IMG/VR virus record: IMGVR_UViG_3300044825_001003
Coordinates: 38,749 to 102,748 of that record
Strand: one strand, 5' to 3'
Length of the DNA stretch: 64,000 nt
Source: a virus
Below the pieces are notes generated by a model, which was not told where the DNA came from, did not search any database, and saw only the letters and a program-made list of their open reading frames with translations. Positions within the stretch are counted from its first letter, which is position 1, and each line of letters begins with the position of its first letter. Below, piece by piece: positions 4,720 through 56,873 of the stretch. The position numbers and the translations under genes were made by a program.

Positions 4720-4995
4720 ATGAACGCACAGATCATTGGCACTTCTCAACCCGTCAAGAACGAGCCACGGAATGTGCTGCCTGAAAACCACGGTAAGCCA
4801 CAGGCTCAGACGATTGGTACAACGATGCCTCTACAGACAGTTGCATCCAACGTCAAGTACGGGGCCGGTACTCGCAGTGGTCAGTTCCAAGTAATTGGTG
4901 AGCAGATTAAGATGAGTGATGCTCCCGTTCTTGGCTATCAGTCGGCCAACACTCCGATGTCTAACCGGGCTGTAGACAGCAAGAAGGGTTTCTAA
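4720..4995 (+). CDS. Small head-region protein with short internal repeats
   Basis: AAGGAG RBS; repeated Q-x-I-G motif. Confidence 0.7.
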   Translation: MNAQIIGTSQPVKNEPRNVLPENHGKPQAQTIGTTMPLQTVASNVKYGAGTRSGQFQVIGEQIKMSDAPVLGYQSANTPMSNRAVDSKKGF

Positions 4996-51550: not shown

Positions 51551-52924
51551 CTACACCTTCTCCAGAAACTTATAGTAAGCTCCCTTGAAGTCCACTGGAA
51601 TAATACCTGTCTTGCCTTGGCGATTCTTGGCTACGATCAATTCGTCATGAGGCGGCGGCTGACCAGCTTTCTTCCAATAAAGACTTGGACGGTGCGGAAA
51701 GATAATCAAGTCGGCATCAGCTTCAATATCACCAGACTCTCTCAAGTCGCTCATCTGTGGGCGATTATCCCCTCCCGGTCTATTCTCCGCTGCACGGCTA
51801 ACCTGAGCAGCGACGATCATGCGAGTGTTGAATTCCATGGCGATATCCTTCAAGCTTCGGGAGATCTCAGACACTTCCTGAAAGCGATTGCCAGACTTGT
51901 TCGGGCACTTCATTCTTTGCAGGTAGTCAATCACTACCATATCCGGATTGCCGTGCTTGGCTTTGAATCGAGCAAGCTCAGCCCTTAGTGCAAGCGGGGT
52001 CTTGCCACCAGTGTCAGAGATCCGCAAGTTCCGAGGGGCTGAATGCTTAACGAATTCAATAACGCTTTCTTTCTCTTGCTGAGTCAGGCTATTGTGCAAG
52101 AAGTCTCCGCCCATGATGCCTACCTGCTGGCAAAAGATTCGAGTCCACATATCCTGAGCGTACATCTCGTGGCTGTAGAACAGAACAGACCTGCCGTTGT
52201 TGGCTGCTTCAAATGCGATCTGACACAGAAGCGCTGACTTTCCAACCGAGGGTCTTGCGCCAATGATTACCAGTTTCCCCGGCTCGAAGCCGTAGACAAA
52301 TTCATTAAGGGTTGTGAATGGGGTCAAGATTCCATCTCTCTTTGTCTCAATGAAATCACGAACACCGTTAGGATTAGATTCCACGATATCGTCGATTGTC
52401 TTAAGAGTGTTTGCTTTAATTGAATCAGTAGCTACGCCGCGAATAAACTCTTCGGCATGGCCAATCAGTTCGGCAGTGTCAGCCCCCTCGGTAATGTTTG
52501 CATCAATTCGCCTAGCGAACCCGAGGATCTTTCTTACGATATAAAGATCGTGCAGTAGATGACAGGCTGCCTCAACGTCAATGTCTTCACCTGATCCAAG
52601 GACATCACGCATCCCCGCTTCATAGTCTTCAGGATCAACCTCGAACTCCACGCTCCGCTTCGCTACAGCGAGAGCAATAGACGGGTCAGGGTATCGACCC
52701 TGTTCATTTGAACTGGCGATGTACTTATAGAAAACCTTATGCCGTACATCGGAGAAATCATCGACTGTTAGATTTGCAGTAATCACCTGTAGGTTTATCG
52801 GCTTCCGGAAGCAGTGGTAAAGAACCTGCCGTTCAACGTCCAAGTTCTTAGTCCTAAAGCTTCCATCTCCAAGAGATTCCGCGATTGCGGCAGCTACGTT
52901 CTGTTTGATTTTCTTACCTGCCAT
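51551..52924 (-). CDS. dnaB: DnaB-like replicative helicase
   Basis: GARPSVGKS, SHEM, VIDYLQ, ISRSLK, AQVSR, DLRESGDIEADAD, AKNRQG. Confidence 0.95.
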   Translation of the reverse strand: MAGKKIKQNVAAAIAESLGDGSFRTKNLDVERQVLYHCFRKPINLQVITANLTVDDFSDVRHKVFYKYIASSNEQGRYPDPSIALAVAKRSVEFEVDPEDYEAGMRDVLGSGEDIDVEAACHLLHDLYIVRKILGFARRIDANITEGADTAELIGHAEEFIRGVATDSIKANTLKTIDDIVESNPNGVRDFIETKRDGILTPFTTLNEFVYGFEPGKLVIIGARPSVGKSALLCQIAFEAANNGRSVLFYSHEMYAQDMWTRIFCQQVGIMGGDFLHNSLTQQEKESVIEFVKHSAPRNLRISDTGGKTPLALRAELARFKAKHGNPDMVVIDYLQRMKCPNKSGNRFQEVSEISRSLKDIAMEFNTRMIVAAQVSRAAENRPGGDNRPQMSDLRESGDIEADADLIIFPHRPSLYWKKAGQPPPHDELIVAKNRQGKTGIIPVDFKGAYYKFLEKV

Positions 52925-53570
52925 TGATTAACCTCATAAAATCAACACCACCTCGTTTGGTAACAAATTCATCCGGGTCCATTCCGTCAGGAAGAGTAGT
53001 AACCCTAATGGGGAACCGCTCCTCAGATAATCCTTCAACCGCTCTAGCTGCTGCCTTGGCACCAGCCGAGTCGCCGTCATAACAGATCGACACCCAATCA
53101 GCGCACCGCTTTAACAGGCGAAGCTGATGTCTGGTCATCGCTGTACCGCAAGTAGAGACTACGTTCCTGATTCCGTATTCCCACAAGACCGCAACATCGA
53201 AATACCCCTCGACCACAATCGCATATCCAGCTTCGAGGATATGGTCTTGAGCCTTGTCGAAGTTGTACAAAACCCTAGACTTGGAATACAGATTGCTCTC
53301 CGGTGAGTTGATGTATTTCTCAGGACTTCCGCTCATCGTCCTTCCGCCGAAAGCGATTAAGTCGCAGGCTGAATTAAAGATTGGGAACATCACCCTGTCA
53401 CTAAACCGATACATCGAACTGTCGCTAATCCTCCCGCAGTATCCGATCTCAAGATCTTCAATCGTCTCCTCCGATAGACCCCTGCCGAACAGGTACTGCT
53501 GAGCCACTTGATTGGACCGAAGACTTTCCTTAAACAGATTAAGGTACTGGATTAGCATTGTCTGGCTCAT
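52914..53570 (-). CDS. DnaG primase catalytic core (TOPRIM) lacking the zinc-binding domain
   Basis: RVMFPI, FGGR, KYINSPE, VEGYFD, GTA, YDGDSAG, DPDE. Confidence 0.92.
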   Translation of the reverse strand: MSQTMLIQYLNLFKESLRSNQVAQQYLFGRGLSEETIEDLEIGYCGRISDSSMYRFSDRVMFPIFNSACDLIAFGGRTMSGSPEKYINSPESNLYSKSRVLYNFDKAQDHILEAGYAIVVEGYFDVAVLWEYGIRNVVSTCGTAMTRHQLRLLKRCADWVSICYDGDSAGAKAAARAVEGLSEERFPIRVTTLPDGMDPDEFVTKRGGVDFMRLINGR

Positions 53571-53760
53571 TGACTTCGACCACTCTTTCGATTGTATCGA
53601 AGTCGAATATTCTCACCCACTTTCTAAGATCGAAGAAGTAGCTGCTTGTCCCGTCCGGGTAGTCGTGCAGTACGTACTGGCAGAGCCTCCACTTCTGCCC
53701 AATCTTTATCCAGTAAACACTTCCTGGATTTATATCACGAAGCTTGACGTCTTTATACAT
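53539..53760 (-). CDS. Small hypothetical protein between the primase halves
   Basis: GAGGGG RBS; overlaps both neighbours. Confidence 0.6.
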   Translation of the reverse strand: MYKDVKLRDINPGSVYWIKIGQKWRLCQYVLHDYPDGTSSYFFDLRKWVRIFDFDTIERVVEVNEPDNANPVP

Positions 53761-54394
53761 CGAAGTCCCCTCTTTCCTCCTTTGCTATCGCCATCCGTTT
53801 CCCAGAAAGAAACCACGTTGGATTCATCAACCCAATCCAGGATCTCTGGGTCTTGTAATATTCCATGAGTTCCTTTTCCGGCATACTCTCCAAGTCATTG
53901 AGCGCTTTCTCTTTAGCTGTCGCCTCGGAATAGAAATCATCTCCTTCCTCGCCAGCTCTCCGAGCTTCCCTGTACCGCCGCCACATTGAGTTCGTGTAGT
54001 AGATCAGGTTGTCAGACAATTGCTTCTTCCACTTGCGGAAAGCCGCCACCTCAGCCGCCTTCCGCCTGGACATCTCCTCGTACATCCGTCGCTGCTCTGG
54101 CGTCATGTACTCGTCCTTGATTCCGGCTATCTGCTTACAATGCCTGATTGCTTCTTTGAAGTCAACCCCATTTATTTTCTGCAAGAAAGACAGTACATCA
54201 CCTGACTCTCCGCAGCCAAAGCACTTGTAGAAACCACGGTCATCGCTCACGCAAAACGATGCCGTCTTCTCTTGGTGAAATGGGCACAGTCCAATCCACC
54301 GAGTCTTCGAAGAACCACTCCGCTTTAGCTCGACGTAATCCTTCACTACGTCCGACAGGGTGATCGACTCTTTGATGTACTGCGTGTCTAGCAC
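53753..54394 (-). CDS. Stand-alone CHC2 primase zinc-binding domain protein
   Basis: LCPFHQEKTASF..YKCFGCGESGD..FKEA; likely GTG start at 54394 after GGAGGA. Confidence 0.88.
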   Translation of the reverse strand: MLDTQYIKESITLSDVVKDYVELKRSGSSKTRWIGLCPFHQEKTASFCVSDDRGFYKCFGCGESGDVLSFLQKINGVDFKEAIRHCKQIAGIKDEYMTPEQRRMYEEMSRRKAAEVAAFRKWKKQLSDNLIYYTNSMWRRYREARRAGEEGDDFYSEATAKEKALNDLESMPEKELMEYYKTQRSWIGLMNPTWFLSGKRMAIAKEERGDFDV

Positions 54395-55758
54395 AGCGGT
54401 GTCGTTCCTCCGGTCGGCTCGTATGGACCACGCACTTCTTTCCATTTCGCGGAGGCAATCCGATACCAATGCTCGATCCGCTCTGGGGTTATCGCATCGA
54501 GGGAGATGGACTCTTTCTTGAATTCTTCAAGCTCATTCGGGGAGATTTGCTTTAGCATGTTCATCACCACGTCAGCCCTGCGAACTTTCTTCCGCAAGAA
54601 ATCCCTACCTGGGGAGTCAGAAACCGGATGCTGGCTAGCTGCTTGAATCTCTGGCATTTGAGCGTATTCGGCCCGTGGCGCGACTTTTTCTTCTTTTGCC
54701 ACCCCTTGATACCCCCAGGTATCTCCGCTTGCGATTTTCACGTATTTTTCGATCTGAGAAATGATCCCCCGCAGAGGCAATCCCCTTCCCAGCCAGTAGG
54801 AGTCTTGCTTGAATTCCTCCAAGGCCGCAAGACAGGAGTCCAGTCCGTAGGTGTCGATGACTCTTTCCAGGGCGTCCCCGAAGTTTTTGTAGAGAGTGGT
54901 AATGCTTCCGTTGTATTCTTTCCCTCTTAGCTTTTTCGGAATCCTGTCGTAAGCCTTGAGGAAAGTCCGCACGTCTTCGTTCATATTCTTTTCTTCTTCC
55001 TCGTTCTGAATTGTTTCTGTTTTCAGGGAAGGTTTTGAGTTCTCTTCTTTTTCCCTGTTTGCCAATAGGGTCGGTGATTTAGATGTTTCTGTCAACTCCA
55101 ACATTTCGGCAGTACGAAGATCTTCTTCTTCTCGTCTCCTAATTGAGTTTTCTTTTTCATTTAAGAGTTCTCTGCCTATAGGAGTATTGATGAAATTTCC
55201 CTTTACTCTTTCTTTATTACTCTCGTTACTCTTTATGTCACCTCTGCTGGAGGTGAGGGTCACCTCTGCTGGAGGTGAGGTATGCTCTGTTAGAGGTGAG
55301 GTATACCCCACTGGAGGTGAGGTGTGGCTTGGTTCTTTGTCGTCCTTGAGACAAAACAGGCTCGGGGTATACTCTGCTGGAGTAGAGGGTGCGTCATCTT
55401 GGCAATCTTCGGTCGCCTCGTCTTCTTTCTGTCGCATGGCCCTTGCTTTACTGGCCAAGAGTTCTAGGGTGCTATAGTTAACCCGGAACGACTGATTGTT
55501 ATTAGCTCCCAGATTTGTCTCGATCAACTGCAACTTCTTTAGCTGGCTGATTTTCTTGGAGACTGTCTTCTTGGCTATGATCCCATAGGAAAATTTAGAG
55601 ATAGTTTGGGCGTTGGTGCTGACCCAGTTATTCCCACTTCCAGTTTTTAGTTTCGACAATCTTTCGACGACGGCGATGATAGCCGCCATCGCCACATCTC
55701 CAGTGGCGAGCATGTAGTCTTCGTAGATATTTATATATTGTTTTGGTATAATACTCAT
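54388..55758 (-). CDS. Replication initiator protein (N-terminal wHTH; origin within the gene)
   Basis: Upstream of primase and DnaB; wHTH-like N-terminus, low-complexity middle carrying iterons. Confidence 0.75.
   Translation of the reverse strand: MSIIPKQYINIYEDYMLATGDVAMAAIIAVVERLSKLKTGSGNNWVSTNAQTISKFSYGIIAKKTVSKKISQLKKLQLIETNLGANNNQSFRVNYSTLELLASKARAMRQKEDEATEDCQDDAPSTPAEYTPSLFCLKDDKEPSHTSPPVGYTSPLTEHTSPPAEVTLTSSRGDIKSNESNKERVKGNFINTPIGRELLNEKENSIRRREEEDLRTAEMLELTETSKSPTLLANREKEENSKPSLKTETIQNEEEEKNMNEDVRTFLKAYDRIPKKLRGKEYNGSITTLYKNFGDALERVIDTYGLDSCLAALEEFKQDSYWLGRGLPLRGIISQIEKYVKIASGDTWGYQGVAKEEKVAPRAEYAQMPEIQAASQHPVSDSPGRDFLRKKVRRADVVMNMLKQISPNELEEFKKESISLDAITPERIEHWYRIASAKWKEVRGPYEPTGGTTPLC
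55140..55320. repeat. Putative replication origin: four iterons plus AT-rich strand-skewed tract
   Basis: GAGGTGA at 55250, 55272, 55293, 55314; first two copies are TCACCTC-TGCTG-GAGGTGA dyads; T-rich tract at 55140-55237. Confidence 0.8.
55724..55752 (+). promoter_or_regulatory. Antisense sigma70-type promoter
   Basis: TAGATA-N17-TATAAT with TGn extended -10. Confidence 0.65.
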
Positions 55759-55904
55759 GAGTGGTCCTGATGATGACTGTTTAGCTGTTCATGAGGAAAG
55801 CCTGTTCACGTTACGTGAAAATGTCGTTTCAGTGAAATTGCTTATACAGTCTGGGTTGATTTGCGGAGGCTTGGCGCTAACCTAATGCCTCCGCTTTTTA
55901 TTTT
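55759..55904 (+). ncRNA. Predicted antisense RNA to the initiator leader
   Basis: Bounded by the plus-strand promoter and plus-strand terminator inside a minus-strand operon. Confidence 0.5.
55863..55904 (+). terminator. Intrinsic terminator, antisense orientation
   Basis: GCGGAGGC...GCCTCCGC-TTTTTATTTT; U-tract only on the plus strand. Confidence 0.7.
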
Positions 55905-56508
55905 ACATCCGCCGACTGCCGAAAATGATTCTTTCTAACTCTTCTATTTCTTCTTGATTTTCCATTTCTATAATTCTGTCAAAGAACTTCGTGGTTTTGA
56001 ACTTCGAACTTTCAGGACTGTATGGATCTGGCCCTAAGCCTCTTTCGTATTTGTCTATAGCCATCTCAACTTCCATTCTCTCCATTATTTCTTCCATTTC
56101 TTCACTAGGAGTTTTTGATTCTATGTGATAGAAAACCCCGTGTTTACTATAGGCGCTGGCCAGTTCAGCGTATTCCGTGCGGCGTGTCTTTTCCTGTATC
56201 TCGGGAGTAATTGTATTTGTATTTATCTTGTATGAATTCCATCCGTCTTTTCTTTTCTTGCTTGAAATATACTGCATTTTCTGTAGTTCGCTCATCTTTC
56301 TGTGTATCGTCCTTGTTGATTGCGTGTTAAAGAAAAGCCTGTTAAGTTCTGCTGCGCTGATCTTTACCCATTCATCCGGCCTTCCAGATTTCCTTATCGA
56401 AGCGTGCTCGATTGCTGTCATGATTAGGGCAGAAAGCATGTCTCCTGTAATTGCAAGGTAGTCGGTTAATATTTCAATTTTGCAATCTGTAGCTCGATGG
56501 TTAGTCAT
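55903..56508 (-). CDS. wHTH protein paralogous to the initiator N-terminus
   Basis: DYLAITGDMLSALI...EWVKISA vs DYMLATGDVAMAAI...NWVSTNA. Confidence 0.75.
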   Translation of the reverse strand: MTNHRATDCKIEILTDYLAITGDMLSALIMTAIEHASIRKSGRPDEWVKISAAELNRLFFNTQSTRTIHRKMSELQKMQYISSKKRKDGWNSYKINTNTITPEIQEKTRRTEYAELASAYSKHGVFYHIESKTPSEEMEEIMERMEVEMAIDKYERGLGPDPYSPESSKFKTTKFFDRIIEMENQEEIEELERIIFGSRRM

Positions 56509-56570
56509 AAACTTTACCCCGGCCAGATTGCTCCAGCCGGGGCTTCCTTCCCTTGGATAAAGTCCAACCG

Positions 56571-56873
56571 TTACGCAGGTTGGCCGCTAGATTCCAACGG
56601 TGGCTCCGTTGGGAGGTCTTCGCTCTGGAAATATGACTGGCCGCAGCACTTGCATTTAATCCATGAGCCAAAGTTAATCATACCCTCGGCGTCCATTTGG
56701 GACAAGGCCATAGTCGCCGGGGTCATTCGCTTCTTTTCTTTGTCGTCTGTCCGATAGGGAACGTAGTCTATCCGATAGATGCCGTACTCATCCTCATAGC
56801 TTTCGTTCTCTACGGTGTAGCAGACGGTCTTGCTGCCCTCGATCCTATACTTCCGCTGGACCACTCGGCTCAT
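56571..56873 (-). CDS. Hypothetical protein
   Basis: 100-aa ORF within the operon. Confidence 0.55.
   Translation of the reverse strand: MSRVVQRKYRIEGSKTVCYTVENESYEDEYGIYRIDYVPYRTDDKEKKRMTPATMALSQMDAEGMINFGSWIKCKCCGQSYFQSEDLPTEPPLESSGQPA

Follow-up and report, generated by a model that had tools for sequence, protein, structure and literature searches.

The locus considered here is part of IMG/VR virus record IMGVR_UViG_3300044825_001003, a linear phage genome of 102,748 base pairs (bp) with 49.5% guanine plus cytosine (GC) and a CheckV completeness of 100%, the DNA of which is found in freshwater and drinking-water metagenomes; the window that we analysed is the last 64 kb of this record. 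From position 40467 to the window end all credible genes are carried by the minus strand, and the operon, which an earlier note on this DNA had rightly described as all minus-strand, includes the gene of a replication initiator apparently of lambda-O type (P0001), preceded by the gene of a protein related to it (P0002) and followed by those of a DnaG primase, in two open reading frames (ORFs), and of a DnaB helicase. Between P0002 and P0001 there is a gap of 144 nucleotides (nt), 55759-55902, and this gap is spanned by a unit facing the opposite way, made up of a plus-strand promoter motif within the first codons of the initiator gene and a plus-oriented intrinsic terminator formed by a hairpin, hp3 (Table 1). 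The two motifs together predict a short RNA that would be antisense to the initiator leader.

The promoter had been anticipated as a TAGATA hexamer followed after 17 nt by TATAAT with an extended TG in the first initiator codons, and it is indeed present at 55724-55752. Its -10 element (TGGTATAAT) is the reverse complement of initiator codons 3-5, ATT ATA CCA, of which ATA is the rarest isoleucine codon (14%). Sigma-70-type promoters of the form TTGACN-17/18-TAnAAT precede plus-strand genes of the phage, all evident ones having strong -35 boxes, and Shine-Dalgarno (SD) motifs precede 59 of its 106 genes; since the phage thus relies on such promoters and on SD motifs, the usual bacterial host polymerase should recognise the antisense promoter. 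Loose sigma-70 matches are not enriched, with 7 observed vs 5.2 expected in a scan of 6 kb. In the whole genome and on both strands, the perfect extended -10 TGNTATAAT is found at one site only vs 3.1 expected, and the wider pattern TGNTAYAAT, likewise with one site vs 6.8 expected, is a depleted motif class. This sole TGNTATAAT site is furthermore followed, 111 nt downstream and on the same strand, by a strong terminator, and by our own estimate from the site counts the chance of finding the sole extended -10 paired with such a terminator is about 0.004-0.03.

The terminator, which had been placed about 140 nt downstream of the promoter, is found there as hp3 followed by a U-tract in which nine of the ten positions are T. 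This T run is present on the antisense side of the hairpin only, and since the minus strand continues after hp3 as AAAUCAACCC, hp3 is predicted to be a one-way, plus-oriented terminator facing against the operon. In a genome-wide search for hairpins followed by T runs, hp3 with its U9 was among the strongest terminators of the genome and was the only intergenic one to oppose its flanking genes, the other strong terminators (genome positions 24006, 34139 and 79190/79209) acting in the sense direction or being located at a convergence point. With both strands of the genome considered, hp3 is present in a single copy.

The RNA expected from this geometry would begin at G55759, 7 nt after the -10 and 1 nt before the initiator ATG, and would have its 3' end in the U-tract; it folds with -41.2 kcal/mol (z -1.9), and no Rfam covariance model matches the region at E up to 5. 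The proposal that it covers the initiator ribosome-binding site and leader stands as far as the motifs are concerned, their arrangement being coherent and both the SD and the leader being spanned, the RNA itself being a prediction. The same cannot be said of the proposal that the leader hides the initiator AUG by pairing CTCATGA with TCATGAG, for although both sequences are present, this helix has a probability of 0.0003 in the folding ensemble and was rejected; the AUG is instead covered by a different small local helix, and the minimum free energy (MFE) structure has an imperfect hairpin of about 80 nt centred on the palindrome TTCACGTTACGTGAA.

As judged from these motifs, the promoter-terminator pair is real and unlikely to have arisen by chance, and it is plausibly functional. 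The reading that we favour, and for which we hold the chances to be about even, is that of a regulatory cis-antisense RNA which, with or without convergent-promoter interference, would damp initiator expression. Host sigma-70 polymerase would in that case start at about G55759 from the extended -10 within codons 3-5 of the O-type initiator gene, head away from that gene across the 104-nt leader, and terminate at hp3 and its U-tract, which directly adjoin the stop codon of P0002, the O-like paralogue encoded upstream. The resulting RNA of about 140 nt would be fully complementary to the initiator 5' untranslated region, with the anti-SD sequence at its 5' end, and its pairing would block binding of the 30S subunit and/or make an RNase III substrate. 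By firing against the operon, the antisense promoter would also damp transcription reading through to the origin, some 370 nt further into the gene, and the net effect would be that initiator synthesis and origin activation are limited or timed during lytic growth.

Table 1. The promoter/terminator unit and the adjoining initiator region, in window coordinates.
Feature	Position	Strand	Remarks
-35-like hexamer TAGATA	55724-55729	+	4/6 match; 17-nt spacer to -10
Extended -10 TGgTATAAT	55744-55752	+	TG 55744-45, TATAAT 55747-52
Predicted antisense RNA, ~136-146 nt	55759-55904	+	predicted from promoter/terminator geometry
Terminator hairpin hp3, GCGGAGGC-N16-GCCTCCGC	55863-55894	+	fold -17.6 kcal/mol
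U-tract TTTTTATTTT	55895-55904	+	overlaps P0002 stop codon 55905-55903
P0001, lambda-O-type replication initiator, 456 aa (amino acids)	54388-55758	-	target gene
Initiator SD AGGA	55765-55768	-	6 nt before ATG 55758-55756; under predicted RNA 5' end
Perfect palindrome TTCACGTTACGTGAA, 15 nt	55805-55819	both	tip of ~80-nt imperfect hairpin in leader
P0002, paralogue of initiator N-terminal domain, 201 aa	55903-56508	-	stop codon abuts terminator
Five iterons, 21-22 nt, GTCACCTCTGCTGGAGGTGAGG and variants	55237-55388		each with CACCTC/GAGGTG dyad; linker-coding part of P0001
AT-rich stretch, GC 0.34-0.35	55100-55250		adjoins iterons

Four related loci were reached (L002, L003, L004 and L005). 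P0001 has the homologues P0003-P0005, among which P0003 is 91% identical. In L002 and L003, which are near-identical to each other in the region and have an initiator 43% identical to P0001, hp3 is found again with 32 of 33 positions identical, loop included (4948-4980 in L002), there 20 nt before the ATG. The hp3 flank GGATnTAnAATAnAA is similar in the window and in these two loci, where the antisense side reads AUUUCUAUUG, and the counterpart of the U-tract in L002 is ATTTCTATTG; outside the shared block the hp3 flanks are unrelated between the window and L002. Codons 3-5 of the L002/L003 initiator are ATT GTA CCA, giving TGgTACAAT on the antisense strand, and this site is one of 2 matches to TGNTAYAAT in the 97 kb of G002, the record of L003. 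Here too, transcription is predicted to start at the G facing the nucleotide immediately ahead of the ATG, and the predicted RNA of about 60 nt would consist of a free 5' tail of 20-21 nt over the translation start region, hp3 and a U-rich tail. L004 and L005 have neither hp3 nor the antisense -10. The unit is hence conserved in some relatives and missing from others, and it is this joint presence in L002/L003 and joint absence in L004/L005 of hairpin and -10 that, at the level of sequence, is the main comparative support for a functional pair.

Strain variants, represented by contigs from other metagenomes, lend the antisense reading further support. In a contig of a 98%-identical strain, 1 of the 35 listed substitutions over 1.9 kb falls within 55694-56001, where about 7 would be expected (Poisson P ~0.006), three further differences lying outside the substitution list, and the strain variants show no change in hp3, the palindrome or the promoter, the leader being variable at 55839-55845. 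In one strain variant the likeness to the window ends at 55911, with a different sequence upstream of hp3, and since this is the very edge of the block shared with L002, the block is situated at a mosaic junction.

Several observations nevertheless weigh against an antisense RNA. The -35 in L002 is the poor TGGATT (3/6) and a simple scan calls no promoter there, while G001 has 6 TGNTAYAAT sites, so that depletion of the motif is not general. The antisense -10 moreover falls in AT-rich N-terminal codons for the conserved residues I-I/V-P, and a terminator needs no fixed 16-nt loop, for which reason hp3 probably serves some further or other purpose. Furthermore, the unit is found in two independent lineages only, hp3 being known in just two nearly identical versions, and the co-occurrence of its parts may stem from shared descent; the comparative support is indeed weakened because the N-terminal domain of the window initiator is also most like that of L002.

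As for the target gene, P0001 has no sequence match in Pfam, PHROG or PDB, and its identification as a replication initiator, as put forward in the earlier note, draws on its surroundings and its relatives. The first 90 residues of P0001, presumably its DNA-binding domain, are paralogous to P0002 (BLASTP E 7e-14 with 29% identity across 90 aa); phrog_678, "replication initiation O-like", is matched by P0002 at 2.5e-5 and by two of four P0001 homologues at 6e-4, all being weak matches, and the Atlas leads for P0001, which are leads only, are HTH_36, Phg_2220_C and Phage_rep_O architectures, the N-terminal DNA-binding domain of lambda O-type initiators being a winged helix of the Phage_rep_O/HTH_36 kind. 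Because these are joined by intragenic iterons and an adjoining AT-rich stretch, which is the design of lambda O and ori-lambda, and with DnaG and DnaB encoded downstream, the label of initiator is justified. The iterons and the AT-rich stretch within the initiator gene probably constitute the replication origin. At the same place, L002, L004 and L005 each have an iteron family of their own, different from that of the window, and initiator and iteron specificity would thereby be seen to have diverged together among these loci and the window.

An inverted iteron-like site, CCACTGGAGATGTGG (sense strand), is also found at 55692-55706, 18-32 nt upstream of the antisense -35, where it matches iteron 4 in 13 of 15 positions and at the same time encodes a conserved ATGDV; through this site the antisense promoter might come under the influence of the initiator, the alternative of a chance match having p ~0.07 by a rough count. 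The palindrome in the leader is unique in the genome, is part of the MFE folds of both strands and is not found in the relatives; it may be an operator, conceivably one for P0002, the gene of which is missing from L002, L003 and L004 and is inserted between hp3 and a second hairpin, hp2, relative to L002/L004. At the other end of P0001, the C-terminal YEPTGGTTPLC (residues 446-456) is invariant in four initiator homologues despite 43-55% overall identity and may be a docking peptide for helicase or primase. The DnaG-type primase itself is split (52914-54469, minus strand) into a zinc-ribbon ORF, 53753-54469, and a catalytic-core/Toprim ORF, 52914-53570, about 180 nt apart, and the L004 primase is likewise split into two or three ORFs.

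The hairpin hp2 ends a 79-nt block over the stop codon of a 100-aa gene, which is present in the window at 56517-56595 (minus strand), in L002 at 4831-4909 and in L004 at 4914-4992, window and L004 being identical and L002/L003 being identical in 71 of 79 positions. It has 11 bp and a GNRA loop (GCAA or GAAA), and it is situated between the purine-rich GGAAGGAAG and an ATG 8 nt beyond, an arrangement that may represent a looped-out split ribosome-binding site. In L002 a T-run follows hp2, which scores as a (sense) terminator there. A search with the hp2 pattern returned only two already known records, and one with the 100-aa upstream protein only the unrelated context L011.

The chief rival to an antisense RNA is that hp3 is mainly a sense-strand element of RNA or DNA, which might stabilise the 3' end of the message from upstream, be processed or bound by a protein, or be a conserved linker where two modules join; the -10-like motif would then have arisen incidentally from the AT-rich N-terminal codons, and antisense transcripts, if any, would be noise. 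This notion is in good agreement with the near-identity of hp3 and its fixed loop between unrelated flanks, with the strain-variant similarity ending at the same block edge, with the equally conserved neighbouring hp2 block and its GNRA loop on the sense strand, and with the presence, in each of the four relatives, of one stable hairpin or another directly ahead of the initiator ATG; it should also be mentioned that the 33-bp oop/pO block of lambdoid phages is itself located at a recombination junction (PMC3349717). It leaves unexplained, however, why the T run is found on the antisense side only and has a U-rich counterpart in L002, and why a unique and perfect extended -10 should be present on the same strand upstream of hp3, and we regard it as somewhat unlikely. 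The more specific idea that hp3 is a site for the initiator, or an iteron, was rejected, since the window and L002 have different iterons but an all but constant hp3. The fixed loop follows neither from the antisense reading nor from a sense or junction element; within the genome, trans targets of the loop amount to chance 10-mers, and a search with the 17-mer of the loop gave only two chance matches, L007 and L008.

A sense promoter directly before hp3, with TAAAAT as its -10 in the window and TACAAT in L002, would make hp3 a protective 5' end of the initiator mRNA. Such a TAnAAT hexamer in the flank GGATnTAnAATAnAA is indeed kept at a fixed distance of 5-6 nt from hp3 in both lineages, and since hp2 scores as a sense terminator in L002, the initiator there might need a promoter of its own; but a TG extension and a usable -35 (1-2/6) are missing in either lineage, in poor agreement with the strong -35 boxes of the evident phage promoters, and the A-rich flank simply complements the antisense U-tract, all of which makes this explanation distinctly improbable. 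Single-strand initiation sites of plasmids (ssi) and G4-type sites provide the model for another alternative, in which hp3 would be a hairpin for single-strand initiation or primase recognition belonging to the origin region. The constant sequence of the hairpin and its position, near the DnaG and DnaB genes and some 500 nt away from the iterons, might be so interpreted, and conservation of the loop would suit recognition by a protein, but this function is made very improbable by the facts that L004, which has the same primase/helicase synteny and is there closest to the window, has no hp3 and that no other hp3 copy exists on either strand of the genome.

Plasmid-type copy control, which the earlier note had taken to suggest a plasmid-prophage or carrier state, would account for a layout that is the same as that of counter-transcribed RNAs controlling plasmid Rep (PMC4485353). 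The complete genome has however no integrase, resolvase, ParA or ParB: tyrosine integrase, serine recombinase and ParB were not found in it (PF00589, PF00239 and PF02195 without a match), and ParA (PF01656) gave none over the cut-off. Nor did searches of 185,579 bacterial genomes and of plasmid and phage collections (the phage collection by DNA and protein, genome contigs by protein and hp3 pattern) yield any relative, and viral-contig searches with P0001 alone and with P0002 gave no match. Lambda, besides, shows such a unit working in lytic replication (PMC3985674), and a plasmid-like state is here extremely improbable. Finally, the plus-strand transcript could be the leaderless mRNA of a 42-aa ORF (55757-55885), as the ATG at 55757 is within 2 nt of the predicted start and the ORF ends inside hp3; the peptide however lacks conservation in L002, its frame being changed there by a 1-nt indel within hp3, and the strain-level substitutions in the ORF are nonsynonymous in 4 of 4 cases, including L>S and I>T, so that this ORF was rejected and retains next to no likelihood.

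If the antisense RNA is real, the layout of lambda pO/oop would not be peculiar to temperate lambdoid phages, since the same arrangement, in which the first codons of an O-type initiator carry an antisense promoter directed against the operon leading into the intragenic origin, would recur with unrelated sequence in a large and apparently virulent environmental phage. This would support convergent or antisense transcription as a general means of tuning phage origin firing, and it would caution against inferring a plasmid lifestyle from cassettes of this kind. That a sharply bounded hp3 is near-identical in distant relatives is in addition a small puzzle concerning how regulatory elements are kept or exchanged. 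A wider and tentative interpretation, which we consider rather unlikely, is that hp3 and hp2 are sequence-fixed mobile regulatory cassettes moving among diverged replication modules of freshwater phages, and that an oop-like unit is a recurrent and required partner of O-type origins beyond the lambdoids, with antisense transcription coupled to origin firing and the hp3 loop bound by a phage or host factor.

Short antisense RNAs over a ribosome-binding site inside an operon are known from phage P22 sar and other phage cis-antisense RNAs, these being without homology to the present unit and having target genes of another class. Closer in target are the counter-transcribed RNAs of plasmids (pMV158 RNAII, pT181, IncFII CopA and repABC), with which the predicted RNA shares complementarity to the translation start region of an initiator and, at the level of motifs, a promoter opposite rep within the leader or 5' end, a length of 50-150 nt and a predicted intrinsic terminator; the L002 version, with its free 5' tail of about 20 nt, one hairpin and U tail, is particularly reminiscent of pMV158 RNAII (PMC4485353). 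The window RNA is however longer and folded and has no evident kissing loop, it belongs to a phage replicon without partition or lysogeny genes, and there is no sign of a CopG-like partner, unless P0002 or the palindrome at 55805-55819 fills that role.

In lambda, the -10 of pO (38684-88) and the start codon of O (38686) overlap, OOP, a self-terminating RNA of 77 nt, begins at 38675, 11 nt before the ATG, and the iterons (39044-39119) are inside O; part of oop together with pO forms a 33-bp block, which is conserved among lambdoid phages with different replication modules and is located at a recombination junction (PMC3349717). Activity of pO reduces pR transcription toward the origin and is required for normal lytic replication, and the OOP RNA itself acts on cII (PMC3985674). 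The window differs from this in several respects. Its -10 does not coincide with the ATG but is found 6-14 nt within the ORF, the predicted start being 1 nt before the ATG; the RNA of about 140 nt would cover the whole initiator leader and SD; and of P0002 this RNA would reach no more than the stop codon, while OOP shares 55 nt with cII, its target. Moreover, it is the terminator that forms the conserved block in the window, and not, as in lambda, the promoter with the 5' end, the unit is not similar in sequence to the 33-bp block (local alignment score 10; shuffle mean 8.3, maximum 13), and the phage is a 103-kb, apparently virulent freshwater one. Both systems nonetheless have a backward-facing promoter where an O-type initiator gene begins, this gene containing iterons and an AT-rich origin about 370 nt in, a short self-terminating RNA, here a predicted one, directed toward an upstream regulator-like gene, and a short, highly conserved block at a module junction. 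With the lambda unit acting in lytic replication through convergent transcription (PMC3349717, PMC3985674), it is by analogy tO-oop-pO of lambda, rather than plasmid life, that appears to be the closest known system.

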